Source: Dudresnaya verticillata
Taxonomy: Eukaryota
NCBI GenBank assembly: GCA_977862235.1
Contig: OZ374560.1
Location: forward strand, 2,728,001-2,792,000
Direction of reading: 5' to 3'
DNA: 64,000 nt
The position numbers and the translations under genes were made by a program. Shown here piece after piece: positions 34,950-64,000 of the stretch. A model generated the notes under the pieces. It was not told the origin of the DNA, did not search any database, and saw only the letters and a list, made by a program, of their open reading frames with translations. How positions within the stretch are numbered: the first letter of the stretch is position 1; each line of letters starts with the position of its first letter.

Positions 34950-37243
34950 ATGGCGCAGTTCAATGGCCTGCAAGTGGCTGCGCCTTCGGCGGCGCCGGTG
35001 TATCCGTCCCCCTTCGACTTTTTCTGGAGGACGCCCCGCAACGATGCGCGATTGTTCTCGCGGGCCCCCTGGTTCGACCAGGAGGCCCTGCGACACGAGG
35101 ATCTCATCACCCATTACGCTGTGAGCGGATTTTTGCCAGGGGAGTTGCCCCTGGCCGTCGTGTGGACGAACGAGTGGCGCCATCGGTGCGCCATTCCGAG
35201 GGGTTGGCTGCGTATTGCCGCCGGCCAGACGCGTGCAGATGCACATGCGCGTTTCGTCGTTGACGTGTATCGGCGGTTTACCCGCTATCCGGGGTCGGTA
35301 TTGACGCCTACCGTCTTTGAATTTGACGCAGGGCAGTACCGCATAAATAGCGAGTTTGGGTATGGGGACCGTCTTGGGACGTTGTCATTAAGCCATGTGG
35401 CTGTTTCGGCTGAGCCGCGGGTGCTTCAGGAGATTAACCTCCTTGGTGTACGCTTGAAAGCGGATTTCCGATACTTGCATAGGACGGGCACCTTCTATTG
35501 GGAGCGCTGCGTCCGTTGGGATTGCGAAACGCGCCGCCGCAAAGGCGTTTTTGTGCCGTATCAAGATACGCAAGTCGATCGCATTGAGCGGGAAAAGTTG
35601 CCGCATTGCTTCATTCGCGTCCCGCCGATGTGGCGGGACTTTGAGGTCTGCGAGGGCTTTGCGGCTGAATTGCCTCCGTGTGTCACGTATATTTGCTCCG
35701 AGTTGCGGACGGATCCGTACTCCCGATGTTGGATCGTATTTTTCACCGAGTGGGTCGTCAACGTAACTTACGCATGGATGTGGGAGGTGTATGACACCTT
35801 CCGGCTCTATTATGTGCCGCCACGCGTAGTCAGCCTCCTTGGTGGGCTTGATTTGACCGAAGTGTTGGGTGGTGCCAGGAACTGCCAAGAGTTCTGGGAT
35901 TTACGCCAGGTGGCAGATAACGTCAACTGGGACGACCCGGCAGCTGTGCCGCCGGGAAACCGGCGCCGTAAGGCAAACCGTCCGCGTTACGCGATGAGTA
36001 GAAATTATTCCGCCTGTGGCGATTGGGTGTGGTGCAACCCGTGGACCAAACGTCTTACGACGGAGAACATCGCTGAGAGTCATCGTCGTACGGACCGCTT
36101 CACGCCAGCGAATCACCAACGTGGGTTGCGCAAGAATTGCGACTTTTCGGGGGATTTCCCGCCTTGATGGCGGAGGAGGATGCGTTTCACGCTAAAAGCG
36201 GACCGGTTAACCCGTCTGGGACGGACGTCATTACGCCTATGGCGGTTGAGCTTACTGCGGGGGCGACAGCTCCCGCGACGATTTCGCCAGCGGCGGTAGG
36301 ACCGTCGGCTGTTGTGCCTGTTGGCTTGCCGTCGGTTGCGCCACTGGATCTCTCGGCGCCCGTCAATGACGGTGATGGTGATGCCATCATGGCTGCGCCC
36401 ATGGCGAGTTCTGCGCCGGTAGTTACGCCTCAAGGCGGAGTGTCTAACGTCGCTGACGGTGCGCATCGCCCTCCTGCAGTGCCCGAGTGGACTGAGGAGC
36501 AGCGCCGCACGGTGCTCGCATTCTTGCGAGCCACCGGTGTCGTCACTGACGGGTCGGGCGGGTCATCCACGACGCCCCTCGGGCACTCGCTGCTGGCTGC
36601 TCTGCAGCCCAGCGTTGCTGCGGTTCCGGCGTCGACCGTCGTTGCGACTGTGCCGTCTAACGACGAAGGTGCGGCGTCTAATGACGGAGTGGCGAAAAAG
36701 CCTTTGTCGCCTAAGGCGGGTTGTGCGGGTTCGTCCGCCATTGCGTCCACTGACGTTGCTAGAAAAAGTCCGCCAAAGGCGAGTGCGGTGGTAGCGCCTA
36801 CGGCGGTTCCGCAGGCTCCAGTGGCCTCTTCGTCGGTGACGGATGTTGATCGTTCAACGCCCTTGGCGGTTAATGCGGTCCCGTCACCGGAGGTGCCGGG
36901 GCCGTCAACTTCGCCCAAGGCGGTTGAGGATGCTCCGCCGCCGAAGGCGAGTGAGCTTCCTTTTGTAACGCCTAAGGCGGGTTGTGACTATAACGTTGCG
37001 CCTATGGCGGTTGACGAACAGTCGTCGCCTAAGGCGGATTGTGAGACAGGTGCGTCGCCAGCGGCGGATGTCGCGACTTCGACAGCAGTGATTGTGGCGG
37101 GTCCCTTGCGGTCCGTTCCTGCCCCTGCCGCGAGCGCACCGTCGGTGACGGAAGACGACCTCTACGAAGAGGCGTTAAGAGAATCCGCCAATGGCGTTGG
37201 GGATGATGCCCCACTTGAACCGTCTGCGACGAAAAAGGCGTAG
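34950..37243 (+). CDS. Antisense accessory ORF of element G (two overlapping ORFs, probably one ~765-aa gene with a frameshift near 36150), unknown function
   Basis: ORF 34950-36167 is aromatic-rich and globular-looking; ORF 36137-37243 is A/P/S/V-rich with repeated PKA. Confidence 0.8.
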
Positions 37244-38461
37244 CCTTTGTGGGATCTTTGAGGACGGTTAGCAAACGCGAGAGCGCGTGTGGTGTCGCTT
37301 TGCCTGTCCCGTGTTGGGGCGGCGAGCGAGGGGTTCATACGTCATAGACGGTTAGTGCTGCGGCAGACGCGCGCGTCTCACGACGTAGGTCGTGGTGGAA
37401 GGTCATGCGGGCACGGGGGTTACCCTCGCTTATGAAGCCCGAATAAACTTGACCGTTGTTAAAACGTAGTTGCTTATGTGTCCGCTTGATGTAGAGCGCT
37501 GCGATAGCGAATAGTATGTAGCCGACGGGTCGCGTTCGTATAGACGTTTTTGTTGTCTGTTCGCGGTAGTAGCGTTTGCGTAAAAGCTTGGGGCGGTGCC
37601 GCCTTGGTGGCGTTTTTCTCCTTCTTGATGCCGCTACAGTAGCGTAAGCCCTTTTGGGAGGGTCCATTTTCTCATGCCGACCTAGTCGTTTTGTTCAAAT
37701 TGTGATTCCGCTTGTTGAGCGAATATGTAGTTGGGGAGCCGTTTGTCGGTAGTCTTTTCGTCTTTGACGTAGGGCATGTTGGGTTAGCGTCGGGGACGGT
37801 TAGCTTGGCGATGCGCCGCGCATGGGGCGCGTTTCTTGCGACTCCTGGGCGTGGCTGCCGTGCGCAGCGGCGGAGTCATTTTTGCGATTAGCGCGTCGTG
37901 CACGAAACGTAGCCCAACTCCGTCTTCGACGACTGTTTCTTCTCTCGTGTTTGCGGGCGACCCCTTCTTCGACTTGAGACACGTCGTTGACGTTCGCGAG
38001 CGTCACCCTCGAGGCGGTTGCGTGCGCCGCCCGTAAGGGTGACGAGTTTCGGACTTGGCCGTGGGTGGCGCGCTTGGGCGAGGACGTCGGAGACGGTTTG
38101 TCGCGTCCGTGCTTGGTTGCCTCGTGGGCGCTCGTAGTGCTGGGGTACACATTTGTCAGGTTCCCGTTGTTGGGCGCCCGCCGCCGCTGGTGCCCGCGTT
38201 ATTATTTTCGCATTAAAATTTTCCATTTCGCTGTTGCCCGATTTCGTGTGGTTCGTGCGCTCTCCACGCCTTCTGACTACTGTCAGCCGTTCTGTCCTTA
38301 CGGACCCCCTCCGAAGAGGGTTGCCTATTCGCGTCTCGCCAACCCAATCGTCCTTGCTCCGGTTGATTACAGCCCCAGTCGTCCGTAACGAGTGCACGTC
38401 CGCGTCAATCCGTATGAGGATGTGGCGTGTGTTTCGCTTCCAGCGCCCACCCTGACTAGGG

Positions 38462-41400
38462 TTATCCGCGTTGCGCGTCGTCGATATTTGCCGGCAGGCT
38501 CGTGTGCTTCTGACGGTGATACCGCACAACGTGCGATCGCGGTAGACTGGACACGGGTTCCCAGGTATTCGCTGAAGCGGGGTATCCAAACCACTTGACG
38601 CGGTAGAGGATCTCACCGTCTTCCGCGTGTGCGTGCGACTCAACCCGTTCGATAACGTACTCCTTCTCGCTTGCAGCGGTCGACGTGGGTTCCTGCCGTT
38701 CTAACGCCTTGGGCGGCTCACTTCGTTGTGTGATGGGCGTCTGCACCGGTTCGGCAAACCGTACTCGACGAGTCGATCGCCTGAGGCGCTGGGTCGGTGC
38801 CCCGAGCGCTTGCGTAGCGGTTTGTGGTTCGTCGCTTTTGCGTACTGGTTCCTCGCTTCTAGCGGCGTCTTTCGCGTTAGCGCGGTCTTCCTCATCGTCA
38901 GTCGATGCGCTCGAAGCGGGACCTACCTTGGTAGCCGGCGAAGCCGAGGTTGCGTGTCCCATTCGCGTACGGATGCCGGGACCCTCCTCCTCGTCGGAGA
39001 CGGATTGCAAGACACCGTCGTCGGGGTTAGCGGCAAAGGGCGAGAGCTCTGCTAATCCGCGGCTTCGTGGCGTTGCATTCATTCGCTCCTGCGAGTCGTT
39101 CGTGCTGCGCGGTGTCCCTGTGCCTCCTGCCGGGTCCGCCTGTGGCGTGTCTGGGGTTCCTGCTCCTTCGTCGGCTGACGTGGGGGCCGGGGGTCCCGGT
39201 ACGTCAGATGGTCCCGGTGGTTGCACTGTTGCGGGGGCGGTGTGCCCTGGTGGGGTTGGCGCCCATACCACGCGGTCTCGGGATAAGCGTTCGCGTTCGC
39301 TACGTCCCTTGTCGACGGTGACTGTCCCGTCGTCGACGTGTGTTACTCGATACGGTCCATCCGCTACAGGTGCGAGCTTGTGCTTGCGCTCTGAGCGATC
39401 GGTGCTCCCGCCGCGGGCGAAGTATTCCTTCCGCACGAATGCGAAGTCTCCCACAGCGATGTTCTCCTTCGATTTCCTCAGACGAGTATCGAAGTTCCGT
39501 TTGTAACGCGCCTGCGTTTTCGCGAGCGACGCGTTAGCGGTTCCCATCAATGCGGACAGCCAGGTTCGCCATTTGGTGTAGTACTGTCCGGCAGTGGGCA
39601 CGCTTTCCAGCGACGGCTCTGCTTCCAGCGACAATGGCCGCGGGGGCTTAGATAGCACCAGCTCGAATGGAGCGAGGTTGGTGGACGAGTGCAGTTGCGT
39701 ATTGTACGCGAACATCAGAGCATCGGTGAACAAATCCCAGTCCTTGGGGTGGTCTGCTACGTAGTGACGCAGGGAGGCGAGGATGGTTCGATTGAATCGT
39801 TCCACTTGGCCGTTACACTGCGGGTGGTACGTAGTAGTGAAGAGATTCTCCACCCCTAAGATGCGGCAGACATCCTGGAACAACTTGGCTACAAATTGCG
39901 GCCCATTGTCGGACAGCAGGTTCTTGGGTGGGCCATACACAAGCACCCAGTGTCGAACAAACGCCTGAGCGATTTCCAATGCCGTAATCTTACGCAAGGG
40001 AACCGTCCGGACCAGCTTCGAGAAGCGGTCCACGATGACGAGTAGAAACTTATTCCCCCGCTTAGTGCGTATGAGCTCTCCGAGTATATCGATGGACGCA
40101 AACTCGAGAGGCTCGGTTTCTGGGAACAGTTTCATCTCCTTCACGTTCTTTCGCATCAGTACCCGGTTCTTCGCGCAAGTAACGCAGTTGCGGACGGTCG
40201 CGTAACAATCCACCGACATAGACGGCCAATAATACTCACGTCGAAGCGTATGGTATAGCTTCCGTCCTCCAGGATGTCCTGCTAATTTAGCATGATATCG
40301 GAGATGGAGCAATCGAACGGGTAACGCGGATGGTACAACGACTTGGGGTCGGGCCTCGACGGTCCGAACCAATAGTCCTTGTTCGTCCGTTGCAAACGGT
40401 AGGTTGTCCCCGTCATCTAGACGTTTCCGGATCTCGTAACAGTACTGGTCACTGCCCTGAGCATGCACCAACTCTTCATGCGTCAATTGACGGAGGAGCA
40501 CTTCATCCGCCGGCGGCGCGTTGGTAACCAACATCTGGTCAAACTCCTCGAAGTCTCGTTCGGAGAAATCGACTTCGCCTTTGGCGTTTGATGTATCGCT
40601 TTCTGCGTGAGCGTAGCCGTCTTCTGACGAGTGATCCTCGTCTTTGACGCAGCTTCCGTGGTAACACGGGATATCATCGTCGATCGGTTCGACCGTTTCG
40701 CCGTTCGTCTGTAGACGTGAGAGGGCATCTGCCTGAGTATTCAGGTATCCCTTCTTATACTTCACGACGAAGTCGAACTCGGAGAGGCGAAGGCGCCATC
40801 TCATTAGCCGTCCCGAGGGATCGCTGATTTCCAAGAGCCACCTCAACGACGAATGGTCCGTATGGACTACGAAGGACTCCATATGAAGGTACGGTCTCAT
40901 CGTCGTGATCGACGAGACTACTGCTAGGCATTCCTTATCGGATACCGAGTAGTTGCGCTCCCGAGCGGTTAACGAGCGTGACCAGAATCCAAGCGGCTTC
41001 CGTTCGCCGTCAGGCTGCGTTTGGAAGAGTGCGCAGCCAACTTGGTATTCGCTCGCATCACAATCGACGGAGTACGGTAGTCCTTGCTGTGGCAACGCCA
41101 GGATGGGCGGGTGAGTCACCGCTTCGACAAGCGTGCTGAATGCCCGAGCTTGCTCCTCGGTGAACGGTTGTAACCGGAAGTCTTGCTCCTTCCTCAACAA
41201 TTTGTTGAGGGGAGCGGCGACGTGCGCGTATCGCGATACAAACCGTCTATAGACGTTGCACAATCCGAGAAAGCTCCGTAATTCCTTCTGGTCCCGCGGA
41301 TGCTTGGCTTCGCGTAACGCGGCTGTGACCGTACGGTCTACTTCCAATCGTCCCGGACGTATCACATGGCCTAAATAGTTGACGGTCGGGGTGAAGAAGT

Positions 41401-43210
41401 CGCACTTGGTCAACTTCAATGTCACCCCGGCCCGATGCAAGGTCGAAAGGATCTCGTCAACATGACGGAAGTGACTGTCAATATCGTTCGAGAAGATGAT
41501 CACATCGTCAAGGTAGAGGAGGCATGAGCGCCACTTGTATCCCGCAAGCAGTATATCGAGGGTCCGTTGAAACGTGGCCGGTGCGTTAGTGAGTCCGCAG
41601 GGCATACGCTTGTAGCGGAACAATCCGGCATGGCATGTGAATGCGGTCTTGTCGGGATCTCGCGGATTGATGGGCACCTGCCAGTAGCCACTATTGCAGT
41701 ATAGGGTGGTGAAGACGTTCGCTTCCCCTAGGCTGTCAATACATTCGTCGATTCGCGGGAGAGGGTACGTATCTCGTACCGTTACCGCGTTCAAGCGACG
41801 GTAGTCAACGCAGAAGCGGAGTGTACCGCCCTTCTTGGGAGCGAAGACGACCGGCGACGCCCATGGCGATTGTGCGGGTTCGATAACCCCCTGACGCAAC
41901 ATGCGATCCACCTCCGCTTGAGCGAGTTGCCTTTGCTTTGGGCCAGCGCGGTAAGCCGGGGATGAAATCGGCCTGGAGCCGGGGGGCAAGTCAATATAGT
42001 GCTCCGTGGGTGCGATTTATCCTAACGAACCGTCCCACATCGACGAGTACCTGCGCAGCATCTCCTTCAGCCGTCCTTGATGTTCGGCTGAGAGATGACT
42101 CAGGTCCAACTCGTCCACTGACGGAGGTTTCGCTACAGTTGCTTCGATCGACTTAGCGAATGTATCCGGCTGTGCCGTTACTCCATCATTCGTTTGAAAA
42201 CGGAAATCTTGATTCGCCTCTTCCTCCGCTGCCTGTTCCGCGGTGATACCTAGGACATCGGCCAGACTTATGTGACTGGGGAACACTGCTGTGGGATTTG
42301 GCAACGCGGTAGCGACGACTTGTCCTTTGACGAGCGCTTGCGGACGCGGGGAGAAGTTTGCGACGAGAATCCGGAACACTCTCAGCGGCTCTAATTGAGC
42401 GACCCCGTTAGTAACGGCCAAAGCTTGGCGATCATATAACGTTCCAAACAGTTGGATGGTAATGACCCCTGCTCGCTCGGTCGTTACCGAGATCCACTTT
42501 TGTGCCTGTGGCGGGATGATTGTTCGTTCTGCAACGCGTATCTTGGGCGACGTTCGTCCGCCGGCCGTACCCTACTCTTGTTCCGTTGGCAACGGGGGGT
42601 ACGACGGGGGCCGGCGCAGCGGGCGGCGCGTTATAGGGACACGGGTCCCGTCGTCCAACTCAATCTCGCGACTCCGCGGATAAATCGCTTCGACAAAGCG
42701 GTCGCAAAAGTCGCAACCGAGTATAACCGGCGCAGCGAGCCGTTCACAGACGATCAACTCCAACTTGACAACCCTTCGTCCGAGACGTACGACTAAATCG
42801 ATAGTGCCCCGGGTCTGAATCGCCTTGTTGTTAGCGTCTGATATGACGGGGAGACTCTTGGATACGATCCGTGATCGCGCTTCTAGCGAAATATCGTCAA
42901 TACGGATGAAATTCGGACCAGCCCCCGTGTCGAGGACAGTGAGTTTACGTGCCAAGGTACCTACAGTTACGCCTAGATCGGCGTATACTTTGTAGTTTCT
43001 TTTGACCATTACGAACAACTGTCCCCGGGCTTGTGGGGGCTGGTACCTACGCCAGGGGCGCTTCAAGGACGTCTGTGACGCGTCTACCCGCCCATCGGCG
43101 TATTTGTTAACTAGGTTCGGGCCCTCCTTCCGTGTCAGCACCCGAGGCGGAAGCCTCTCTGCTTGGTGCGACACCCCAGTGTCAGGAGTTGGTACCCTCA
43201 TTAGTTTTTC
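38462..43210 (-). pseudogene. pol: pol of element G (PR, RT, RNase H, INT, long linker, chromodomain) with premature stops
   Basis: One frame with stops at 42572 and 42017. VLDTGAG; first RT Asp reads TTLYCNSGY; YLDD; LSDNG...NGQVERFN; EYVIERV...YRVKWFGY...NTWEP. Confidence 0.94.
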
Positions 43211-45752
43211 GCCTGCGGCGGTTGTAGCGGCGCTGTGTAGCGATTGACCACCGTCGGATGACGTTCTGCTGCATGCGGCATAGGTCCGCCTCGTGGTGAT
43301 GGGGGTCGCGCTGCACGGCGTGCTGCTTCGCGCGCCGCGCGTTCTTTGTACCGAGTGTACGCATCGGCGGGGACCCCCGCCTTCTCGGCGTCTGTTAAGC
43401 CTTCGTAGTTGGCGATCGCTTTCATATACTCGCTCATGCGGAGGAAGCAGTCCGGTGCCATGTGACCACGGGCATAACACTGATGACAGATCAACTGTCT
43501 GCGAGCGTCTTGACGGAGCGGACCCCTGTCTTGCCAACCTGGCCTCGCCCGATGGACGTGGGGGGCATACTCCAAGTACGGGACGCGGGCACGACGGAAC
43601 GCCCAAAGGCGAGTGTAGGATCCATTGCCTCTGTGTCCTCGTCTTCGACGTAGCTGTCCGTTGGTAACGCTGACGTTGGCACTGATGCTTGTTCATCGGC
43701 CAAATAGAGATCGCCATCGGCGTGTGTTTCCATATCGTCTGCATGACGGGTGACATCACGGAACTCAACGGAGGTCTCCGCTATCATAGCGCGCGCGGCA
43801 GGCTTCGTGCCCCTCGTCTGTTGACGTAGAACCGTTCGGTTGTCGCCAATGGCGGGGCGCAATGCGCGAGCGGCTTGGGCCGGGGCCAATATATCCCGTC
43901 TTACTGACGTCGAGCCGGCCCTGCCGTGTCTTGCGCGTTGCGCGTCACCTTCGTCCTGTGCGAAGTGGACTAAACGTTCAAAATATAACTCCGCCCTCGG
44001 CGTTTCTTCGCGGAAGCGGGCCACTAAGGACCTGATCGTCGGGTCTAACCCATGGATGTACAGTGTCATCTTTTCCCATCCGGGATAAACGTTACCGCAA
44101 CGAATACATGCGCCGGCGAGTCTCATGCCGTAAGTCGTTTCGTCTTCGCCCTGCTTCTGGCTAGTCGACCGCAGGGCGAGGACAGCGTCTCGAATCGCCG
44201 AAGGAGTGGCGTATGTGCGGAGTAGGTAGTGCACCGCCTCCGGGTAAGATGATACGCCGCCGCGATGGCGAGAGGATGTCGATTTGACGGAGCGGAATTG
44301 CGTGGCTGCCGTGCCCTTTAAGAAGTACGGCAGCGCGACGAACGCTTGTGCTTCACTCATCTCTAGCGTGTCCGCTTCATCCGCGAACCGCGTTAAGAAT
44401 TCGAGGACCATGACGGGGTCGCTGCCGTTGAAGGCGGCGTCCTTCATCGTTAACTCGAGTCGCTTGATATGGTCTTTGACCTTCCAGGTTTCGCGTCCAG
44501 AGCGCTTCTGTCCCACGTCTTGGAGACGGTATGTGCGGTACGATAGAAACTGGTCGAAGAGAGGATTGGAGGGGCTTAGCTCCTTCAGTCCCTTGTATCG
44601 CTTTCCGCGGGGTCGCATTGCACTGCCGTGAGCCACGTTGCCGTCATCGTCTGACGACGAAGAGTCTGTTGACCCGCCGTCACTAGACGTGTCTGAAGAG
44701 GATGAGGATGAGTCCCCTCGTCGGCGACGGTTCTTCTTCCGTCCATGACGCGACTTGCGGCGATTCTTGCCCCGTCTTCTGCGATCTTTGCGTCTTCGAC
44801 GGTCTTCCTCGGAACTATCGTCATCCGACGGCGGCCCTTGGCGCCATTTGGCGGTTTCCAGTCGCTCTAAGCGGGTTGCCAATCGTTGAAAACGTTCGCG
44901 TGAATTCAGTTCCGACTGGGAATGGACCGTCAATGCCGTTGGCTGCTGAGCATCTACCCCTTGGTTGGGGTTCGTCATCAGACGGTCGAGGTCGGAACGG
45001 AGTCCTTGAAGGGCACCGTCCCGATCTTCTTCCAACGTCTGTAGACGGCTGAAGATACCTCCGACATTGTCGTCGAGCATCTCCGCGAATCGAGCGAGTA
45101 AGTTACCGTCTTCGGCGACGCATACTTCCCGAATCCGCTCGCGAGGTATCGTGAGATTCCCAACGCGGGCGGATGCTGGGGACGCCACTGGCGGTGTGCG
45201 CGCGGAGGTCGACGCCTGCGGCGGACCTCCCGTGCTGCGCGGTTGCGCTAACGGCCTGGCCGGTGAACATCCGGCACTGCCGTGGGGTGGGGGGCAGCAG
45301 CCCCTTGGGATTGGTGATTCGTCTACGACGTCGCGCCCCGCAGGGCGTTCTTGGTCGTCGTCGACGGGTAAGGTTGGTTGGTGGACCGGAACTTCCGGTT
45401 GTTCCTCGACGATGTCGGCTTGGGCTCCGTCCTCGACGGGTCGCTGTTCGGCTTGTACCGTGTCAGCGGAATCCACGTGCGAGTGGTAGGTTCGGAGGGC
45501 CGATTCGTTGGGAACGGTGGTGCGGATGACGACGGGTATCGGCGGGGGAGGTATTTCTCCCCTGTTGAGCGATATATGGGAGTGGTCGTGGCCTGGACCG
45601 GTCGGGAAGGCCGATGCGATCTCGGGGCTCACGAGGCGCCCAGACCTCGTTGTCATCCGCTGTAGCGACCGCTCCGACGCGGGGACACTCCCCGGCGTCG
45701 ATGACGGTCTTCTTGAACTGGGGCCTCGCGACGGCGGCGGTCGTGAGGCCAT
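43201..45752 (-). pseudogene. gag: gag of element G with one frameshift near 43550
   Basis: 753-aa ORF 43491-45752. The knuckle CHQCYARGHMAPDC is in the overlapping frame 43201-43575, which ends AKN*. Confidence 0.88.
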
Positions 45753-45777
45753 AATGCAGTCGTAGAGTTGCTTGAAC

Positions 45778-46141
45778 GTCGTGGACGATTAGCGACGGAT
45801 GTCTAGAGACGGAAGGTCGGACGTCGCACGACGGAGTAACTCGTTGAAACGTAGCACACTTCTAGGTCGTCGTGGACGATTAGCGACGGATGTCTAGAGA
45901 CGGAAGGTCGGACGTCGCACGACGGAGTAACTCGTTGAAACGTAGCACACTTCTAGGTCGTCGTGGACGATTAGCGACGGATGTCTAGAGACGGAAGGTC
46001 GGACGTCGCACGACGGAGTAACTCGTTGAAACGTAGCACACTTCTAGGTCGTCGTGGACGATTAGCGACGGATGTCTAGAGACGGAAGGTCGGACGTCGC
46101 ACGACGGAGTAACTCGTTGAAACGTAGCACACTTCTAGGTC
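45778..46141. repeat. Four identical 91-bp tandem repeats abutting the PBS of G
   Basis: GTCGTGGACGATTAGCG...CACACTTCTAGGTC starts at 45778, 45869, 45960 and 46051. Confidence 0.97.
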
Positions 46142-49100
46142 GGGAGACCAGTTGTAGTGCAAACGTCGATGACGGACACCGCCGAGCAGTTCGGGGCTCC
46201 GTGGGTAGCGACGCCTGCGGCGATGAGTGGCCTCGCCGTGGGCGTCTGTTGGTAGAGCGGTTGACTCGCCTGGGGCGGACTGTAAACGCCCGAGGCGGAA
46301 AAGAAGAACAAAAGAAAACAGAAAGGGAACACGTCGAGGACGGGTAGAGACGTGAAAGCACGGAGGTAGACGCTTAGCCGTAGGCAGCGGTAGGGTACAC
46401 GCGTGCTGAACGGGGAAGTCTGGACCAAGGCCGGCTTGCCGGGGTTTACTGTGACGTCTGAGACGGATCCACTAAGTACAGGATTTCCTAGCGGCGGCGA
46501 CGCGGATGTACGCGTAACGCGGGAACTCGGGACACGTGTTGTCCCGAGGCGCGTCTGACAGATCCGTCCGTCATGCAGCCGCGCTCCTGACAGATCACGC
46601 GTAGCTTCCCCGCTCGAGTCCTTACACTTACACGTGGATTACTTCCTTGCAGCCGCATGCGCCCCATGGCGCGAGCGATCTCGATCCGCACCAATCCCGA
46701 TCCAGTCCGGATTCGGGCCAGCGATGCGGATGCGCCAGGCTTACAGGCGCGTGCCTTACACTCCTTAATCCCGATGTGGGATCCCGATGTGGGATCCCGA
46801 TTGGATCCGGATTCGGGCCACGCTTACAGCGAACGTTCCCGCCACTGCGCCATGCGCGTACGCGTGGCGCCGTACAGTGGCCGGGCTCAGGCGTGCGGTC
46901 TGCACGCCCAGCAAGCCGTTCTGGCCCAAGTGGGCAGCGGCATGCGTCGGTGACGTGTTTGCGCCGCGGGCGGGTTGAGCGCGCCGTTGGCGGTCGTCCG
47001 TCGGTAGACGCTGCATATCAACGTTTGAAAGCGAAAACGGGCCCCCCTGGCACTACAAATCCTTTCCAGCTTGAACACGGTGCTCGTACGTAAGCCTTGG
47101 TAGACTTCAGGGCTACCAGCGATTTCTCCAAGAGGACTCTCCAACTTGTGCGCTGGCACGGCCTGTACAAAAGGACGGTGTTTTACCAGGATGCACCGAT
47201 AACCTGTCGAAGCAGTCTTGAGGGGGGCGTCAGTCACGCCCTCAACGGCCACTTCTAAATGGCCACTAGGGCCGGTTGTAATTCCAAGAATAAACGTGCT
47301 CGCCACTGATTTGACGCTACTCAGCAGCTTGAGATGGAGCGTAGAAACCGTCAACAATCCTGACTAGGGTTTCAACACCGGTTGGCCGGGAAACTCGTCC
47401 TTGACACGAAACAACGTCTTGCGTCCTGTACTCGTGAGTTAACCAACCAGGGTTGAGGAAGAAAGGGGAAACCAACCCAGAACACTTCTAGGTCGGGAGA
47501 CCAATGTAGCACAACGGGTCCAGCCCAGGAAGAGCAAAAAGAACAAAGAACACCTGTCCGGAACCGTAGTGCTCACAGGCAGCTCGGGTGTGGTAGAGGC
47601 TTGGTAGAATGGCGCTAGGCCAGGAAAAAGGAAAAGGAAAAAGGGGGACACGACCCGGTATTCCGCAGGGAACCTGCTGTACGGTGACTAGCCTGCAGTC
47701 GGCGTCCAAAAAGGGAACGGGAAGCGCCCGGAATCCAGAAAATGGTCAAGACCGAGAAACTCCCCGTGGGGTTCAATCAGGGGTGCCCTGCTATTCAGGG
47801 GACCAATAAATAGGGCTTGTGCCCGTGCTAATACTAACTACTATAGTGTACTCTACACAAATTACATTGAGCAGTGGGAGGCGGATCTACGCCCCTGTGG
47901 CGGCGTATAATCGGGAAATAGCCCAACGCCGCACCAATGATCAGGCGCCAATTGCGCGTCTGAGGCGCAGATGATTTCGCGCCAGGCGCCAATCACATGT
48001 CGCATCATGGCGCAGTCCAGCAATGCCAGCGCCTTACAGGGCATTGGCCCGTTACAACTTACAGCGTCGAGCGCCCACTTGGCGCAAATCGCCGTTATGC
48101 CACAAGAACGGGGGCTACCCTAGAAAGAAAGAGAAAACAAAGGGAAAATAAGAGAAAAACAGGATTCTGTACGGTGAAGATGGGTAGCGTACGTACTGGA
48201 GTCCAGCCTAGCGACGGCGTCGATAGGGTAGGAGGTTATGTCTCGCTGGGCCCACGCTAAGCCGTTTATAGTATGAGGGCGCACCTCAGGGCCCTAATAA
48301 ACTATATACGAGGCGGATGTGCCTTGGTGGCGGATTAAGGTAGTGGAAGGGGGCGTGCCACTTGGTATTGCGTGGTACGCACAAGTCTATAATTATCTAC
48401 TAAAATATCTTCTGTCAGTCTCTTGGTAGTGCGGCTTGACAGTGTGCGCCAAGGGGACACACGTGTGCACGTATGTGCGTTGTCGTTGTGAGGGGGCCAT
48501 CCTTGCTGGCAGCGAGAAACTGTCAGCTGGGATGGCTTGCAAGGGGATTTCCCCAATATCATTGCTGGCGTACGCGCGTTGTGCCAGAGCCCATTACACA
48601 AATTGGCTTTGAGCTCAAACGTACGCGCAGCGGTTGATCCGCATGTATCGGCCGTTTCGGCCCGTCGTCCGCAGTCGAGCCGCGGGCGACGCCCATTATG
48701 AAGAACTCTTCAGTAGTGCGCGAAGGCCATTTGCACCACACAAATCATTGCTACTTTATCACTAACAAGTTGTCAGGTCTGCTTTCTCGCCAACAGGAGC
48801 ATCGTCGTCGATGATGCAACATAACTTATAATTTACAAGTCATCGATCATTCAGCATTTAGGGTTAACTAAACGAGGCTAAATTTAGCCAAGAAGCGAAA
48901 GGTACCCTGGAAACTAGATCCTTTTATCAACTGCAACTTTATTATTGGATCCGTTGCCGAGGTTGACCGGCTCAGGAGCATTGCGGAGCACGTGCTAACC
49001 GACAATCGCAAGGCGATTACCACCAAGTTTTTGAAGCTATAATATTCCTCAAAATGAATGAACAGGTTTGACATCGCATTACACAAACGTTAACATGGAT

Positions 49101-50990: not shown

Positions 50991-51169
50991 AATAGAGGGG
51001 CGATAGCATATTAGATTGTTTTGTGGTGATGTTGTGTCTATTTGTTGTTTAAGGTGATCCAGCGCGGGCAACTTGGGCCCCTATGCCGGGGGTAAACGTC
51101 ACTTTACGAAAGCATGAAGTTGCCGGCGCACCGCTAACGAGGTCCTTACTGGGGTCCTGGCGACAGTAC

Positions 51170-55000: not shown

Positions 55001-55339
55001 AACCCAGGTATGAGCCGGCACACAGCGAACAAGCTCATGCGATGGGCGCTCAAGCTGAGCGCCCATCGATGCGTCATCGAGCACCTCCCTGGCGAGCAAA
55101 ACGTATGGGCGGACATACTAACGCGCTGGGCCGTCAAGCCCAGAGACAGAGTGAAGTCGGTCAAGCTAGCCAGCCTGTTCTACGCCCCAATTACTCCCGA
55201 GACTAACGAAGAGTATGACTGGCCAACTCGTAACGACTTCGCTAAGGCTCAGAAGGAAACAACAGAACAACCGCCGCATGGTTTCAGCGAGAAAGATGGA
55301 ATCATCCAAGACAATGGAGGTGTCTTCTGGCTTCCCGTA
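52100..55339 (+). mobile_element. Element C: gag-pol of a distinct Ty3/Gypsy lineage, frameshifted and interrupted by element B
   Basis: ATG at 52100; knuckle-like CLNKACHKHHRVMDC; protease LGDYGA; RT FAKLDMCHAYWQ and WLDD; RNase H LFTDAS...EKEAF; frameshifts near 53140, 54475 and 54780. Confidence 0.92.
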
Positions 55340-56345
55340 TGTAGTATGTCTAGAGCACCACCGCGTACGGCAGCCCAACGAGACCCCAAGAAGACCACAA
55401 AGACCTGTCGGATTTGACCAAAACTGGCCAGAACGTAGAACGGACCTGCGCGCCGGTAGCAAGCGTGGTAGAGCGGGAGCGCGCAGACGAAGTCGTGACC
55501 AGTATCCGTGATGAGGACGGAAAATGGCCAAGTCGGGGGTTCAGTTGCTAACTTTACTCCCAACCTCTGGCGGGACGGCTTCGTACCTTTTTCGGCTTAG
55601 CCGTAGTGTGTGGCCAGCTAAGTAGGCCCAAAATTGGCCATCAGAGCTAATCTAGAGCTATTCTACAGTTAGTGGCCGAGGTTACTCCGGTCGGCCATAA
55701 TATCTACTTGTGTTCCGGCGTCGGGCCAATGTTGTACCCTTACCAGACTAAACCAAGTACTTGTTCGTTAGTGGTTGGCCAAATGAGTTAGATTTTCCCT
55801 TGATTTTTCCACTGTCTTCCCTTTGATTCACCTTGCGGCCAAATCCAATTTCCATTTGTGTCCTGGCCGAGAACCGGATCATACGTGTACAGCGGGCCAC
55901 GTGGTGCGCTTCAGTGTCGTAGGTGGCCACGTGTGAGCCACGTGTACAGTCGGTGGCCACGTATCATACTTGCGCGCGCTCACCGCCGTCCGCGCGCCGA
56001 CGGCGCAACTTCATTGGCCAAGTGTCTTCGTTTGGTTGGGCCGATCGTACAGTTGGCCCGTCGATTTGCTTCCTTTCGGCGGCCCCCTTGCCGTTGCACC
56101 ACAGAGCCCCCTTCGCAAGCGCGGACTCCTGGCCGCGAGGGTTTCATCTGGCCATATCAGCGCGCGTGATCCCCGCCGCTACCCCTCTCCCTACATCCGG
56201 CCATCACCATCTTGCTCACACTTCACTTCCCCTTACCAACACTTCCCAACACATCGTGCGCACGCCCGCGCTTCTTGCCAACTTGTGCGCCCTTCCCTCG
56301 CTTCGGCCTCCACGTGCGCATCCGGCCAGTCGCTCTTGATGGCGG

Positions 56346-59300
56346 GTGGCCAAAGCGCGCCCGCGTCGCACAGCATCGGCTAAGAAGAAGACTGTTCGGC
56401 CGACCATTTCTTCCAGCTCGTCATCTACACCGCCGTCGAGCGACGAGGAAGTGGCTGTGGCCAGAGCGAAAGCGACCACGAAGAAGACTGGCCAGACGTC
56501 AAGGCCGCGCGGGATGAAGGCGCCTTGGGCATCTTCCGCCCCAGCACCCAAGACCCCAAGTGGCAAGCCCTTCGATCCGCTAGTTGCTGTAGCCACTACC
56601 ACAGCGGCGAAGCCCATCAAGACTGGCCAGAAGAAGAGTGTTGCTGCCTCCGCTACTCCGGTCATGGCGCAAGCGATGCCCGACGTTGGCACCGACAAGA
56701 TAATGCAGGAGATAGCGGCCATGCAGAAGAGGCGCGAAGCTGAGGAGCAACAATTGGCCAGTCTGAAGAAGAAACTTGCGGATGCGCAGAAGGCCAAGGT
56801 GGTGCGCAGTGTGACCATCGTCGCATCATCTTCATCAGAGGAGGCAGCGGCGGCAACAGGCCAACTTAAAAGAGGTAAGCCGACAGCGTCTTCTAACGTC
56901 GGTCCGCTAGCCAAGGAGACGAAGCAAACTGGCCAAAAGACAGCAGAAGCGCCTGAGAAAGGGTTGGTACAGGCCGAAGTGAAGCGTCTCGAGGCGAAGA
57001 AGTCAATGCCGGCCCCAAACACTTCGGTGCCAACGGCCATTAATCCGACGCCACCGCCGCTGGCCAGCGCTGTTGAGAAGGCTGTTATTGCCATCTCTCG
57101 TCCCCTGGTGGCTCAAGCTACCACTGCAGCAGCTGAAGAAGTAGCTGCGGCTCAACCCGAGGTTGCCGATTCGGCCATGGTATTCGTGCCCGCTCGAGAA
57201 GAACCACTGACCAGCAAGCAGGAGTTACCTGAAAAAGTTGAGAAGGTTGGGCCAGAGCAGAAGAAAGGAGACAAGTTGGGGCAGAAGGCTGCAGAAGCTT
57301 TGGCCAATATTCCTGTGCCACGCAAGTCGTCGCGTTCGGCCACTCCGAGCGCTTCAAGGAAATCCACGCCGCGACTACGTTCGGTGCCTTCGCCTTTCAT
57401 GCCGACGGCTGCGAGTCGTGCGCGCGAGCTGGTCAAGTTAAACATCGGCAAGCCCGCTGTTCAGGGTCCTCCCACAAAGAAGCAGCGGCTGCCGCCTAAG
57501 GAAGTTGACCAGACACCTCGCGACTAAGTTATCGACGTCGATGCTTCTACACCAATCCCGCCGGCCAATCTTATGTCAGACGGCGATCGTCGTCGCTTTG
57601 TGGCCTTGCTCCCCGACGCCGATGAGCTTAAAACTGGCCATTCTTCGTCTACGCCTTCTGTAGGCGTGCAGCCCAAGTCATCTGGCCAGGTTGAAGATCC
57701 TCGCGCTATGGAAGTTACTCCGCGTGAAGAGACCTTAGATATTACCAAGACTGGCCAGAGTTCAAGTGCTGGCCCCTCTGCTCCTACTCATCCGGATCAG
57801 GAGCCGGCTTCGCATAATCGTGCTGCCGTGCCTTTCCGCTGCGACATTCCGCCGGGACTAGAAGATCATGATGGCCCCGAATTAGTTTTGGATGAGCGAT
57901 TGCCTGGGACTTCCATCTGGCCAACGCGTCCTCGAGTGGATATTCCTTATGCCGAGTTGGTGGCCAATAGTGACAAGCTGGACATGATCCGCGTGCGAGA
58001 AAGCAATTGCCCTCTCAACGAGGCGTGGCATCAATATCGCAAATCGCATGACAATGGCCATCTCTACTGGATCCCTTCGGAGATTGAGTGCGACCGTGCC
58101 TTCTTGCTGTGCGCGCAAGACGTGATGTTCGTCCACGGGGCTTGGCTGATGTTCAAGGGCAAGTCTAATGTGTACCCTCATACGTCCACATGGTATTACG
58201 CCTTCCCTCACGCGTGGATGTTTGAGCGCTGGGAGCAGACGACCGTGCGAAACGCGAAAATGGCCAGTACAGACCTTCGTCGCATCATAGCGCCGGGAGA
58301 TTGGCTGGCCCATCGCACGGGTGGTAGCTATGTCTACCACGGCAGCACTCGTGGCCAAGAAGGTTTTTGGCCCCCTTTCGAATACTTCCCTAGCGTTCCC
58401 GCTTTTCTCTGGAGGGAGTGGCCATCGAAAGGAGAAGCTAGTCTACTTAGCCCGCTGGCTTATTATTTTGTTGGCCAGTATCGTCGTCGTGCGCTCGACC
58501 CCACCTGGGTTGAGTGCTTCCAAGAAACCGCTGTCATAGAGTTGCACATAATGGCCAGCATCTTCTTCCGCTATGAAGCACAGGCGTCGAAGAGAATGTG
58601 GTGGATGTCTTCTCAGGCCATTGCTCGACGAGTGGAAGTGGTGAAAGATCTTACCTACCTCCCCGTCAGCCAGGAGCATCAGCATCAGTTCAATCATGTA
58701 TATTGGCCAGATGTTGTGTCGCTGTATGAGAAGTTGGCCGACACCGTGCGGCACCGGGACCATTTGTTTCAACGCAGGGCTGGCCATGATGAGAAGTATT
58801 GCGGTTTCGACTGGAACAAACAAGTGACCTTTCGGCATGGCAGTAGCTTTGGAGTTGAAGTGGCCAACGACGCTTCCATCGTGCGGGCCAGCATCTTGCA
58901 TCCTCATCCGCATGTGGTGGCCGAACTTTCTGTGCGTGGCCATGTTAACCAAATGTCTTTCGCCAACGTCTTGCGGCAGCTGGACCAGAGCTTTGGCCGC
59001 CTCAGCGATACAAAGCGTGGCCAGACCGATGAACTCAACCGCGTTCGTCGTCATGTTGATGAAATGGAAGAGGTAATCAGGCGGGGTGAAGAGCGGTTGG
59101 CCAATATTAGAAGGCAGAAGGACCAAGTCGAGGCCGAATTGCAGGCCACAAAGGAGACGTTGGCCAGATCTAACGAGCAGGGTCTTGAGTGGAAGAGGCA
59201 GCGCGATCGCTGGTGCGATGAGACGCACAATCAACAGGCCTTACTTGACATGGAGCGCAATCGTGGATTTCATCAGCTGGCCAGTTTGCGCGCAGCTTAT

Positions 59301-59717
59301 GCGCCCTCCGTCTTTGGCCAGATGCCTCAGTTTCCTCTGTCTTCCTTGCCTACGCCTGCGCCGGGTATGCCGCAATATCCTGGGGTCTCAGTGGCACCGG
59401 CCACAACCCCCACGCCATCTCACGCTGGGGACATCAGCAGTCATCCACGTGCGCCGTCTCGACCGGCCGATTATCAACCAGAGCCAACTCGTCCGACTTT
59501 GTCGGCTCCGCCGACTCCTGTGGCCAATGTTGCTCAGCCTGGCCAGGTCCCTGGAAGCTTATCTCTGCCGGCCACTTCGCCTTTTGTGACGCCGCCAACC
59601 GTCCCTGCGACGGCCCCTCGTGTCCCCGCGACAGCGCCTCGTGCGCCTTCGCAGTCAAGGAGCAGAGAGCCCTATGCTTCGGGTTCTCCTCGCTCACCAA
59701 GTCCTTATGGCCGTTAG
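56346..59717 (+). CDS. Antisense accessory ORF of element B (about 1120 codons with one in-frame TAA at 57525-57527), unknown function
   Basis: ORFs 56346-57527 (K/A/T/P-rich) and 57573-59717 (aromatic-rich domain, coiled coil, Pro-rich tail) are in the same frame. Confidence 0.82.
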
Positions 59718-60631
59718 TTGTCAAGGTGTTGGATTAGTAGTTGGCCAGCTCGTCTTGTGCTCTTATGCTGGCCAATGAGTTGTTGTTAGTCTTGTGATTT
59801 CCTGTGTCTTGTGTTTGCGTTATCAAAAGTTGGTGACCAGGTTAGTGCTTCTAAGGCGGGACAGCCCCCTTGTCTTTGGGGGTTAAGTCTGTCCGGCCAG
59901 TCTTGAGTTAAAGTGCACTGGTTGCCTTCAAAAATGTTGTGTGTTATCGTGGCCAGTTACTAGTCAAATGGGGCCGTATGGCCTTTGTTAGTCCGGGTAG
60001 TAGACCTTGCTTCTGGCCAATGCTCATGAGCACAGCTGGAAAAAACGGGGTTAAGGGAGTTAGTGGTTAAGTCAAAACACAAAAATGGCCAGTGCGAGTG
60101 GTGGGGTGAAGTGGTCTTGATGCGGGGCTACCTCCCTCAAGGCGCCGAAGGAAGAGCAATGGCCAGCTATTGTCTTCGTCTCATCAGCCTCAAGCTCCTC
60201 ATTTGGCCATGTCTTCTTCTCTGGGCCAATTTCCTTCTTGTTGTCGGTAGGGGGTTATCGTCACTCCCCCTGTCCTCTCATTCTGCGCAAACCCCCGCTT
60301 GGGAGCACGACGCGTGGGAATTAGAGTTACCTGGAAAAGGCAGCAAAAGATGAGGTAGTTTCTACCGTCCATTTACACCCACTGAATTTTGGCGTACACC
60401 GGGAGATTTGCTGGCCGCAACTTTCTCACACATGATTGGCCAGCTTACATTATTCTGGGTTAACCCTAAACACCACCGTCGTGTTTTTGGCGGCGAGGTT
60501 CCAGCCGGGGTATTTCGTCACCCAGCATCTCCCTCCTCCGTCCACAACCACCCCGCATCTCCGTCTTCACAAGTTTTTGGCCAGACTCTGACTCCTCTCG
60601 CTTGACTTCCCTGGCCATGTCGAAGTTGACC

Positions 60632-63600
60632 TCACGAATTGTTTTGGCCCGGCGTAGCTCGGCGCTTCATGCGCGCGAAGAAGCGCGACACCAACGTGGC
60701 TGGCAGAAGAACCTCGGGTTCCCATGTTCGGCCATTATACCCATACCACTTGACCTGAAACCACCGTTGGCCAGTCGAATCCTCGCGCATATCCGTGAGC
60801 TTGTCAATGACATATTCCTCGGCCGACGCAGCAACTCCTTCAGGAAGGTTTCCCAATGCGGCACTGGCCAATGTTTCCGTAGCCATCGGTTGCCCCTGTG
60901 GCCTGGGTGCGGCTACTACTCGGTCCGAGCTAACACGCTCCAGTTGGCCAGCTCTGTCGATGACGAACGTACGGCCATCATTGCTTATAATTTTGTATGG
61001 CCCCTGGGCATGATGCTCTAGTTTTTTTGGCTGCTTTTCTGGGTTGTCCAGAAAGACAAACCCTCCAGCGGCCAGTATCTTATTCCCCGTTCTAACCGAG
61101 CGGTCGAAGTCCTTCTTGTAGCGCGCTTGTGTGCGAGTTAAACTGGCCGAAGCTTTATCCACGGCCTCTGATAATCGGCGCAAGAACGCTTCCTTCACAG
61201 TCCCTGTTGGCTTTGGCCGGTTTAACGTAGCTTCGAGTGAGAAGGGACTCGGCGGCCGACTGAGAACCAAGTCAAACGGCGTGGTTCCAGTGGAGCGATG
61301 TATATGGCAATTATAAGCATACGTCAATGCCGCAGCGTATTCATCCCAGTCAGTCTGGTGCTCATTCACGTAGCTCCTCAGCATCGCGGCCAGTGTTCGA
61401 TTGTACCTTTCTACCTGGCCATTTGTTTGTGGATGATATGTCGTTGTGAAGATGTTGGCCACCTGTAATTGTCGGCAGACTGCCTGGAAGAACTTGGCCG
61501 CAAACTGCCCACCGTTGTCAGTAAGAACTGTCTTTGGTGCACCGTACTTGAAAATCCAGTGAACGCAAAACGCCGTGGCCACATTATAGGCGGTTATCTT
61601 CGTCAGAGGCACCACCTGAGTCAACTTCGAGAAGCGGCATGTAATGACTAATATGTGCTCGAACCCCTTCTTAGTTTTGGGGAGGGGCCCGAGAAGATCC
61701 ATGGCCACACTCTCTAATGGTTGACTGGCCGGGAAAAGCTGTAACTTCGATGTATGTCGGAGACGACGAATCCGGTTTTTGGCGCAATGGCCACAGTTCC
61801 GAACCGTAGCTAGACAGTCAGCGGCCATGTGCGGCCAATAGTATGTCCGTCGAAGGGTCTGATACATTCGATTCTGGCCAGGGTGACCTGCCAGAACGGC
61901 ATGATGGCACAACCGAAGAATCCGGCCATGCAACGAAGCTGGAAGCACTATTTGTTTTCGGCCATCTGTCGGACAACGTCTGTAGAGGACCCCATCAACC
62001 CCTTCGAAGAAGAGAGGTTTCTTGGGTCGTCCCAGGCCAGCTCGCGTGGCGAGAATGGTCTGGCAGAAGTCATCGTTTTTCTGGCCCTCTATTATTTCAG
62101 TCTGTGTTACTGGTGTTGGGAGAGTCTCTGCTGTCTTCCCTTCCATTTGTGCACGACTGAAAACTTCCGCTCGGCCATAGTCCGTATAATCGGCCATCAA
62201 ATGTTCCTCCTCCCAGGCGTCGACATCATCGTCCCGTTCTCTCCTGTCGGCCATATTAGTTTCTCGATTTCTCCGGGCCCGCGTGGTCGTGAGAATAGAG
62301 GGGGTACCGTCCAATACAGGTACAGTATCATCTATTGGCCGTGCATCTCCGCTCTCTTGCGGGGCGACCAAGCGGGACAAGGCATCGGGGACTTGGTTCT
62401 TACGGCCCGGTTTATACTCAATCACAAAGTCGAACTCGGCCAGACGTAATCTCCATCTTGTAAGACGGCCAGACGAATCAGTGAGCGACATCAACCAACG
62501 GAGGGCATCATGGTCCGTACGGACTGTGAACTTGGTACCTTCAACATATGGCCATAATGATGTAATTGTCCACACCACTGACAAACACTCGCGCTCAGTG
62601 GCCGAATAGTTTTTCTCGGCCGACGTAAGGGAACGAGACCAATATCCCACGGGGTGGTACGTCTCGTCCTCTTGTTCTTGGAGCAAGACGCATCCAATCT
62701 GGTATGCGCTGGCATCAGTCTCGATCACATATGGCCGGCCGTATCTAGGTAAGGCCAGAATCGGCGGCGAGACGAGAGCAGCCTTCAGTTTCTCGAAGCT
62801 CTGACGTTGTTCCTCTGTTGGCCGTTCGAAGTCTGGCTCGGCATCCTTGCACAACATGCGCGTAAGTGGCCGTGCGATACTGGAATATTTGGCCACAAAT
62901 CTTCGGTAGACATTGCAAGCTCCCAAGAAGGACCGAAGTTCTGTAAGGGATCCTGGAAACTCGGCTTCTTGTATTGCCTTGGTACCCTGCATGGCCATAC
63001 TTAGTTTTCCGGGGGTCACTACATGACCCAGATAATCTACTTTGGCCTGAAAGAAGGAACACTTCTTCAACTTCAACGTAATGCCGGCCGCCTTCAACAA
63101 GGTTAAGACCTCGTCTAGATGGCCAAGATGATCCTCCACATTCTTGGAGAACACGATGACATCGTCCAGATAGATGAGGCAGATCTGCCATCGGACACCA
63201 GAGAGAACTATGTCAAGCGCGCGCTGAAATGTGGCCGGTGCGTTCTTCAAGCCAAATGGCATTCGATTGTACCTGAATGTTCCCAAGTGAGAGGTGAAGG
63301 CCGTCTTATCCTTGTCCTCCTCGGCCACTGGTATTTGCCAATATCCGGAGTTACAGTCCAAGGTTGAAAACACGGCCGCATCCCCAAGGGAGTCTATGCA
63401 ATCGTCCATGCGCGGGAGCGGGTATGCGTCACCAACTGTCTTCGCATTGAGTCGGCGATAGTCGACACAGAAGCGGAGGGTGCCATCCTTCTTCGGCACC
63501 ATGACAATTGGCGAGGCCCATTCTACGTGCGATGGCTCTATAACTCCGGCCTCCAACTGCTTCTTAATATCGGCCTCTGCGATCGCGCGTAACGCTGGAC

Positions 63601-63973
63601 CCTGTCGATAGGGCATCGCTCTTATTGGCCGGGTTCCATCTTCCAAGTCTATCCGATGTTCGGTGGCCATGATCTGTCCCAAGGAACCGTCCCACATTGC
63701 ACTGTGTTTCTCTAGGATGGCCATTATCTTTTCGCGTTGTTTCTTGTCCGGAATATGATCAAGTTTGATCTTATCCCGACATTCTTGTGCCTATTGTCTA
63801 GGTACCTTTGGTTCCGAAGGCTCACCTCTTTCTTGGCCAGATTCTTCTACTTCTACTTGACTACTATCCTGATCCACATGTGGAGTAAGCCCAAGTACAC
63901 TGGCCATATTCTCCACACTCCGTCCGTGTGGCGTCAGGATTGCCATGGGGTGGCGGACGGCATAGCCGACCAC
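60632..63973 (-). CDS. pol: pol of element B (RT, RNase H, INT, chromodomain); in-frame stop at 63791 upstream of RT
   Basis: 1030-aa ORF: FSTLDCNSGYWQ, YLDD, ETDAS...ERECL, H...GH...CGHC, VAMDL, LTDNG, NGQVERYN, EYVIDKL...FQVKWYGY...TWEP. Confidence 0.96.
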
Positions 63974-64000
63974 GGTACCCTTTGGCAGTAAGACATCCCT

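Follow-up and report, generated by a model that had tools for sequence, protein, structure and literature searches.

A close described counterpart of the system considered here is that of the Arabidopsis VANDAL transposons, in which an accessory protein encoded by the element (VANC) occurs beside family-specific short motifs that have accumulated within the element (PMC5735166, PMC13547354); according to these sources, related VANDAL families carry different motifs, and homodimers held together by a coiled coil are predicted for VANC21. In cyanobacteria, the palindrome HIP1 is hyper-abundant inside open reading frames (ORFs) and in the stretches that separate them, is argued to be under selection and gives way to alternative words in some lineages (PMC5861425, PMC4390886). 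Here we describe a comparable situation in a nest of Ty3/Gypsy elements that makes up a 64-kb window of Dudresnaya verticillata DNA (the whole stretch analysed, 64,000 nucleotides; assembly GCA_977862235.1, contig OZ374560.1, positions 2,728,001 to 2,792,000). Element B of this nest, which lies on the minus strand inside the integrase of element A, is tiled along its visible length with the palindrome YGGCCR and carries an antisense ORF whose product may read this word.

As in the VANC/VANDAL system, B carries a protein of its own beside a short motif accumulated in the element, the motif of the related element G is a different one, and the B antisense protein is likewise, if marginally, predicted to pair with itself by means of a coiled coil. 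However, VANDAL is a Mutator-like DNA transposon, whereas B is a long terminal repeat (LTR) retrotransposon, and the VANDAL motifs are described as non-coding tandem repeats (PMC5735166), whereas those of B are single palindromes dispersed through all ORFs with short-range exclusion. The antisense protein showed no relationship to VANC or MAIN by sequence, in Pfam or among PDB sequences, and no clear one by fold with low-confidence models, the fold library not having been checked for a VANC structure. Because the element class differs, the words are palindromic and dispersed in coding DNA, and no homology was detected, B is not regarded as a VANC member; by analogy, its system may be VANC-like in its working. 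The VANC parallel drawn in an earlier, sequence-only reading of this DNA is partly supported: it stands for the accumulation of a family-specific motif and does not extend to the layout.

Other described systems share single traits with B. The modules of the plant mobile domain (PMD) proteins MAIN/MAIL also comprise a protein and a short motif opposing silencing, as B is proposed to do, but according to the preprint describing them (bioRxiv 10.1101/2024.09.27.615353) they involve host genes and promoters, and the antisense family gave no PMD match in Pfam scans. The antisense ORFs of the Retand elements lie, like that of B, between pol and the 3′ LTR; their function is unknown and DNA binding has been proposed (PMC11963269). 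According to the same source, Retand elements are non-chromoviruses of flowering plants with TRP28 (PF04195), which has no match in the 27 + 8 antisense family members, and the part of that source available to us mentions no element-wide motif, whereas B is tiled along its visible length. HIP1 is described as genome-wide, with about one site per kb at saturation, and tied to a methyltransferase, whereas the words considered here are confined to individual families of mobile elements, in which they reach 14 per kb. A literature search that left aside subscription papers and supplements listed no description of LTR retrotransposons tiled with a palindrome over their whole length.

A palindrome tiles element B

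The tiling of B is confirmed as real and element-specific, and it recurs with different words in related families. In the visible extent of B (8,661 bp), TGGCCA occurs 66 times, against 2.4 occurrences scaled from 32,025 bp of other elements and 12.7 expected under the order-2 Markov model of B itself. Compared with the scaled neighbours, CGGCCA/TGGCCG (45 vs 7.3) and CGGCCG (8 vs 2.2) are also raised, the remaining NGGCCN words occurring 1-13 times vs 2.2-5.9. The true word is YGGCCR, with 119 sites, i.e. 13.7 per kb or about one per 70 bases; among 230 fetched loci, the maximal density is 6.4 per kb, in a locus with 74% GC. The sequence-only reading had noticed, by eye, TGGCCA crowding the LTR, antisense ORF, spacer and pol of B as well as the B-derived parts of the tandem array, and its sparsity in the neighbours, and the counts bear this out: GGCCA/TGGCC is of roughly flat density, with 19.0 per kb in the LTR region, 15.4 in the antisense ORF, 15.3 in the spacer, 14.5 in pol and 15.2 in the B-derived leader (2988-4107). 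At the junction of A and B the number of YGGCCR sites per 250 bp steps sharply from 0, 0, 0, 1 to 2, 5, 4, 4, 4, TGGCCA is absent from the 3,046 bp at 48105-51150, and in the neighbouring elements of the window the words are near background.

The sites are dispersed, 89 of the 119 lying inside ORFs, and B contains a single short tandem repeat. Codon usage, which had already been judged insufficient by the sequence-only reading, is rejected as the source because the excess of TGGCCA survives synonymous shuffling in pol (15 vs 4.8) and in both parts of the antisense ORF (8 vs 1.2 and 22 vs 3.9; each 0/1000); all three reading frames are used. Several other sources were tried and rejected. A general excess of palindromes is not seen, the other six-base palindromes summing to 118 vs 124. 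CpG decay of CGGCCG cannot be the sole source, given that CGGCCG and CGGCCA are themselves raised and that the observed/expected CpG ratio is 0.93 in B and 0.90 in A. Repair of the very-short-patch type from one precursor would draw on words that are not depleted (TGACCA 7 vs 4.3; 14 neighbour words with z scores of -2.6 to +0.8). Imperfect variants of the word are strand-symmetric in B (26 vs 19). Another word, GCGCGC, shows a mild excess in B (12-14 vs about 3), with half of its occurrences in or near the LTR.

A search for clustered YGGCCR in genomes G001-G003 found no B-like element. By an rRNA search, G001 yielded no eukaryotic host, the control responding in all 14 prokaryotes. The cyanobacterial bin among them (G002) contains short tandem repeats rich in TGGCCA (contigs C24, C223, C273, C318, C333, C379; loci L262, L265, L268, L271), apparently unrelated to B.

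Signs of selection and spacing of the sites

The tiling looks selected. Coding positions that permit TGGCCA are filled in 45 of 60 cases in B and in 2 of 39 in seven neighbour ORFs, and in the downstream part of the antisense ORF 22 of 23 are filled. In the compatibility of their peptides with TGGCCA, the three proteins of B rank 1-3 of 132 (z 5.9, 4.5 and 4.4; median 1.0), and the integrase region permits 7.95 YGGCCR per 100 amino acids, compared with 4.41±0.88 (maximum 6.05) in 41 homologues. At pol codon 413 (near 62550), in RNase H, TGGCCA gives Trp, while 20 of 20 homologues have Arg.

The sites are also spaced more evenly than at random. Over 134 sites the coefficient of variation (CV) of the gaps is 0.71, vs 0.98 for random placement, and 10 gaps are shorter than 20 bp, vs 34. 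When sites are drawn from permitting positions only, short gaps remain too few in pol (2 vs 10.6, p 1e-4) and in the antisense parts (p 0.03 and 0.15). The fraction of permitting positions that are filled grows with the distance to the nearest site, from 0/11 below 7 bp and 2/25 at 7-15 bp to 16/33 at 16-23 bp and 81/118 at 24 bp or more (7-15 bp vs at least 24 bp, p 1.6e-8), the rate at 7-15 bp being the background level of the neighbours (30/277). Such exclusion within about 16 bp would be expected if one bound protein covered that length. Between the 3′ LTR of B and its counterparts in the array there are only 3-4 differences in 764 bases, so that the insertion of B is very young; since, in addition, the flanking element has no sites, they were acquired during the replication of B itself. 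Phasing of the sites at 10-11 bp was rejected (p 0.85). Distances between sites (55340-64000 and 2988-4107) peak near multiples of about 4.8 bp (p 0.005), a weak lead that under a frame-keeping null reaches p<0.05 in 2 of 12 whole-element settings and in no single compartment.

Different words in related families

Tests restricted to ungapped 5- and 6-mers had left B as the sole tiled element, a result that no longer stood once palindromes with a spacer were looked for. Words that differ between families and have a constant gap are of the kind bound by dimeric DNA-binding proteins. In G, the word CGYC-N3-GRCG has 79 sites in 33578-45776, a density of 6.5 per kb where B has 0.1 and F has 0.4. 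Of these sites, 10 lie in the LTR, 34 in the antisense region, 6 in the spacer, 11 in pol and 18 in gag, and within the ORFs the word occurs 29 times vs 4.6 expected. The smallest gaps are 17, 20, 20 and 20 bp, with one gap under 20 bp vs 9.0 expected, partly owing to the length of the word itself; the looser CGY-N5-RCG has 151 sites. A third word, CTC-N6-GAG, is shared by loci L147 (23 vs 3.1) and L149, with z scores of 7.7 and 11.3, respectively, in pol alone.

Significance was assessed by repeating the full search over 60 x 19 words in each of 100 shuffles of 24 elements that had been hand-picked after earlier results; 9 of the 24 beat 100/100 shuffles (B, G, L147, L149, L150, L035, L044, L076 and L013). 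In an unselected count, a log-likelihood ratio (LLR) of 15 was reached by 12 of 83 sequences of the lineage, compared with 3 of 127 outside it; the lineage was labelled by hand, and the count covered sequences of at least 3 kb and half-sites other than homopolymers. The family-specific motif for which the sequence-only reading had suggested looking in F and G was thus found in G by the gapped-word search and not in F, whose best word is reached by 41 of 100 shuffles.

The antisense protein family

The antisense ORFs of B and G appear from profile comparisons to be related and to belong to no known family. A profile seeded with the G ORF matches 32 of 78 metagenome loci, many of which contributed to its building, with 30 of the matches antisense to pol, and none of 68 viral loci. 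For the B antisense protein, a full HMMER scan of 1.84 billion representatives found 4 homologues, and 4 matches occur in G001; word-indexed searches returned none or only P0202, and atlas searches gave matches under 0.9 or none. Three of the 4 homologues share the same plan, with a disordered N-terminus, a conserved domain, a coiled coil and a tail. An alignment of the B-type with the G-type profile spans 81 columns (probability 82%, E 1e-5), and when 16,011 segments are searched with the former, the best match other than to itself is G (E 0.027); the B sequence alone did not score against the G-type profile and gave an E value of 0.0037 with hhalign. The ORF evolves fast, its products being 12-26% identical to that of G within its subfamily. 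The profile matches in eight of the nine elements with a significant word; the ninth, L149, has a minus-strand frame of 475 codons and a short DNA match to the antisense region of L147, without a profile match.

Searches of Pfam and of PDB sequences with the antisense proteins yielded no match, and fold searches with models of predicted local distance difference test (pLDDT) scores 56.3 and 55.2 yielded no clear one; one of these searches was filled by the coiled coil, so that the conserved domain was barely probed. The B protein is predicted, marginally, to dimerise through its coiled coil: the two-copy model scores 0.34, vs 0.00 for the best of three controls, with at least 56% contact agreement and pLDDT of at least 37. 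It thereby passes the threshold narrowly; among microbial proteins, 21 of 30 with structures solved as pairs and none of 23 solved alone do so; for eukaryotic proteins the figure is 17 of 29, but 1 of 7 for those without an older relative. The predicted homodimer would fit a reader of palindromes, and the pass of the model may reflect only its likeness to solved coiled coils.

A candidate self-recognition system and its rivals

The explanation that we favour, with a probability of about 0.55, is that the B antisense protein binds YGGCCR as a dimer on double-stranded DNA and that selection during retrotransposition has tiled the element with its sites. The antisense protein of each family would bind its own palindrome; over rounds of retrotransposition, selection would put in sites where the genetic code permits them, at one for each footprint of the protein; and the bound protein would probably coat the element and hold off host silencing. 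We infer that the reader is the antisense protein rather than a host factor or Gag/integrase. Given binding, the odds that the benefit is anti-silencing, as the VANC analogy would have it, are about even, with activation and protection of cDNA as alternatives; a preprint describes H3K27me3 as the mark that silences transposable elements in a red alga, C. merolae. A wider version, tentative and rather less probable than its opposite, is that a Ty3/Gypsy lineage, probably red-algal, would possess an antisense dimeric reader of a new family, with each family recoded, enzymes included, into a palindrome lattice serving as a self-recognition or anti-silencing code, and with sequence-free hairpins in some branches. 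If so, retrotransposons would have solved self-recognition independently, with enough force to alter the choice of codons and amino acids, and the lineage would be a source of small sequence-specific chromatin tools. The locus supplies the matched candidate protein-word pairs B/YGGCCR, G/CGYC-N3-GRCG and L147/CTC-N6-GAG.

A number of observations weigh against this explanation. As to the protein, domain scans recognised no DNA-binding or chromatin domain in it, its conserved domain is not basic (40 K+R, 43 D+E), and the ORF is split by a stop in this copy of B. As to the words, none reaches significance in F despite its antisense ORF, only 12 of the 83 lineage sequences pass the threshold though 32 of the 78 loci carry the ORF, the weaker words of L035, L044 and L148, with z scores of 3.0-3.3 when pol is taken by itself, are tentative, an excess of TCC-N4-GGA extends over several clades, and the sites in G are clustered at large scale (CV 1.42). 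Word and protein both co-vary with phylogeny, so that their pairing is not independent evidence. In B itself, the reverse transcriptase (RT)-RNase H region lies within the range of its homologues for YGGCCR-permitting positions, and the motif sites in pol are not on unusually divergent columns, the homologues permitting the word at 0.35 of them vs 0.39 of control positions. The relatives of B add a further difficulty: neither its RT relatives (L151, L152-L154, L156, L157) nor the loci with B-type antisense ORFs (L225, L228) have a fixed word, none standing at 0/100 shuffles. Instead, most of these loci are tiled by perfect inverted repeats of variable sequence, inside ORFs, which are not explained by a sequence-specific reader and keep the readings based on single strands and on templating alive.

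In a quick RT tree, for which 71 of 94 sequences were long enough, B falls within the clade of L152-L156. The density of YGGCCR in that clade is 0.3-1.9 per kb, which places the origin of the word on the terminal branch of B (0.18 changes per column). Inverted repeats number 48 vs 3.0 expected in L153, 40 vs 1.3 in L228, 29 vs 3.7 in L156, 23 vs 4.3 in L154 and 21 vs 5.7 in L157, and 2 vs 4.7 in L151; no repeat in B has arms of at least 8. The tiling repeats have arms of 8-15 and loops of 0-14 and reach 9 per kb, vs a median of 0.5 in 228 sequences; they occur in L153, L156, L154, L152, L157, L228, L225 and L249 and also in L035, L065, L069, L066, L043, L053, L049 and L073. Dyad symmetry, dispersal and even spacing are common to the YGGCCR and the hairpin signature and suggest some single selective agent. 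Positional homology between the sites of B and the hairpins of the sisters was rejected, with 12 of 71 coinciding vs 11.6 expected over five loci (L152, 4/5, and L154, 3/6, being high).

Selection and footprint-like spacing are compatible with any dimeric binder, so the palindromes might have been selected for the binding of dimeric host proteins, a different one in each family, or of the element's integrase or Gag to DNA, the antisense protein doing something else. The lack of a recognised DNA-binding domain and the existence of antisense ORFs without a word in F and in the sisters of B would agree with this, and transposable elements are described as exploiting dose-dependent host motifs such as GATC (PMC13547354). 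Against a host factor, which we consider unlikely, stand at least three unrelated words, with gaps of 0, 3 and 6, within one lineage, which suggest a fast-evolving private reader, and the fast-evolving gene common to the tiled families is the antisense ORF. Two of these words lie side by side in one host and nearly exclude each other, each being near background in the neighbouring elements, down to the complete absence of TGGCCA from the 3-kb stretch mentioned above.

The stem-loops of the sisters (up to 9 per kb, with a fold z score of -13.8 in the RT region of L153) invite a reading in which UGGCCA words, as the equivalent in B of these hairpins, act in single-stranded RNA or cDNA, pairing with one another or binding Gag, in packaging, dimerisation or compaction. 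In local folds of B, 63 of the 119 cores pair with another GGCC, and hairpins formed by sites near one another would interfere, so that short-range exclusion would be expected here too. However, B folds no better than its shuffles (z -1.5) or its neighbours (mean z -1.05 vs -0.89 and -0.86), neighbouring sites have no added complementarity beside them (1.26 vs 1.12), the other six-base palindromes are not raised and the imperfect variants are strand-symmetric, while the words of G and L147, with arms of 3-4 bp and a fixed gap, would make poor hairpins; even the stems of the sisters show few G-U pairs on the sense strand (3 of 55 single mismatches). This reading is accordingly judged quite improbable, and still less credence is given to a family-specific mutational ratchet that makes palindromes without benefit, through template switching by RT or through methylation-directed repair as proposed for HIP1. 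The perfect but sequence-variable inverted repeats of the sisters do look templated, among words one base away from TGGCCA the most frequent, CGGCCA (45), departs from it at the outer position, as in the ratchet model of HIP1, and that model also saturates (PMC4390886). Yet no single precursor is drained in B, a host process would hit A, F and G as well, the visible ORFs of B include no methyltransferase domain, and fixed gapped words with exclusion over 16-20 bp in two families need a length scale like that of a reader.

Anatomy of the elements and minor observations

Element B appears from its sequence features to be a chromovirus-like Ty3/Gypsy LTR retrotransposon: the order RT-RNase H-integrase, LTRs of the form TG...CA, a target-site duplication, a primer-binding site and a likely polypurine tract (PPT) are all present (Table 1). 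The chromodomain match of B at the integrase C-terminus (19.5 bits) is below the cut-off of 25.1, F and G exceed the cut-off, and many homologues carry PF00385. The 5′ LTR of B is visible only as copies within the tandem array, and the adjoining frame is called gag-like by its contiguity with the LTR, since no homologue of the gag piece was found. In the upstream part of the antisense ORF the first in-frame Met is codon 59, and the frame is ended by a TAA at 57525-57527. In F and G, too, the interval from pol to the 3′ LTR contains an antisense ORF; what the sequence-only reading had listed as elements C and F is one element, F, with G nested inside it.

Table 1. Features of element B and of its neighbours, in window coordinates
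Feature	Position	Strand	Remarks
Element B, visible extent	55340..64000	.	119 YGGCCR (66 TGGCCA), even spacing, strands alike
B 3′ LTR	55340..56103	-	TG...CA, 764 bp
Target-site duplication CCGTA	55335..55339	+	second copy after LTR in array, where A integrase frame resumes
Purine-rich tract, likely PPT	56104..56120	-	adjoins 3′ LTR
Antisense ORF, upstream part	56340..57527	+	395 codons, basic, low-complexity
Antisense ORF, downstream part	57528..59717	+	729 codons: conserved domain, coiled coil, Pro-rich tail
Coiled coil, predicted homodimer interface	59022..59255	+	marginal prediction
Non-coding spacer, antisense ORF to pol end	59718..60631	.	10 TGGCCA
pol	60632..63790	-	RT, RNase H, integrase, weak chromodomain match; open 1052 codons; 46 YGGCCR
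Array copy of B 5′ end	2988..4871	-	5′ LTR 4108-4871, primer-binding site, leader, start of gag-like frame
Element G	33578..47057	-	LTRs 33578-34486 and 46153-47057
G antisense ORF	34929..36167	+	seed of antisense protein family; distant relative of that of B
F antisense ORF	23168..24903	+	three frames; weak collinear matches to G-type profile

The tandem array at 1-22754 has a unit of 3,956 bp consisting of the 5′ junction of B, the rest of the A integrase and LTR pieces; the units alternate between two variants, 6-7 bases apart, and the array holds six copies of the B LTR, each followed by CCGTA and the continuing A frame. One of three differences between B LTR copies, at 55498, turns TGGCCA into TGACCA, a single event that is not informative.

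Relatives of these elements were found on marine metagenome contigs and on contigs binned as Algimonas, a genus that lives on seaweeds; chromoviruses are described from red algae (PMC3605345). Taken together, this makes a red alga the probable host. Clusters of CTTACA occur in the LTRs or leaders of G, F and the array (21730-21812, 34046-34253, 46621-46828 and 48033-48063) and not in the B LTR; with no such cluster in 106 related loci, CTTACA was rejected as a word of the lineage and is possibly the site of a host-specific factor. The primer-binding sequence is nearly common to B (4090-4107), F (21880-21896) and a third junction (47486-47503), and by the primer-binding site of G the leader at 45777-46142 consists of four identical copies of a 91-bp unit.

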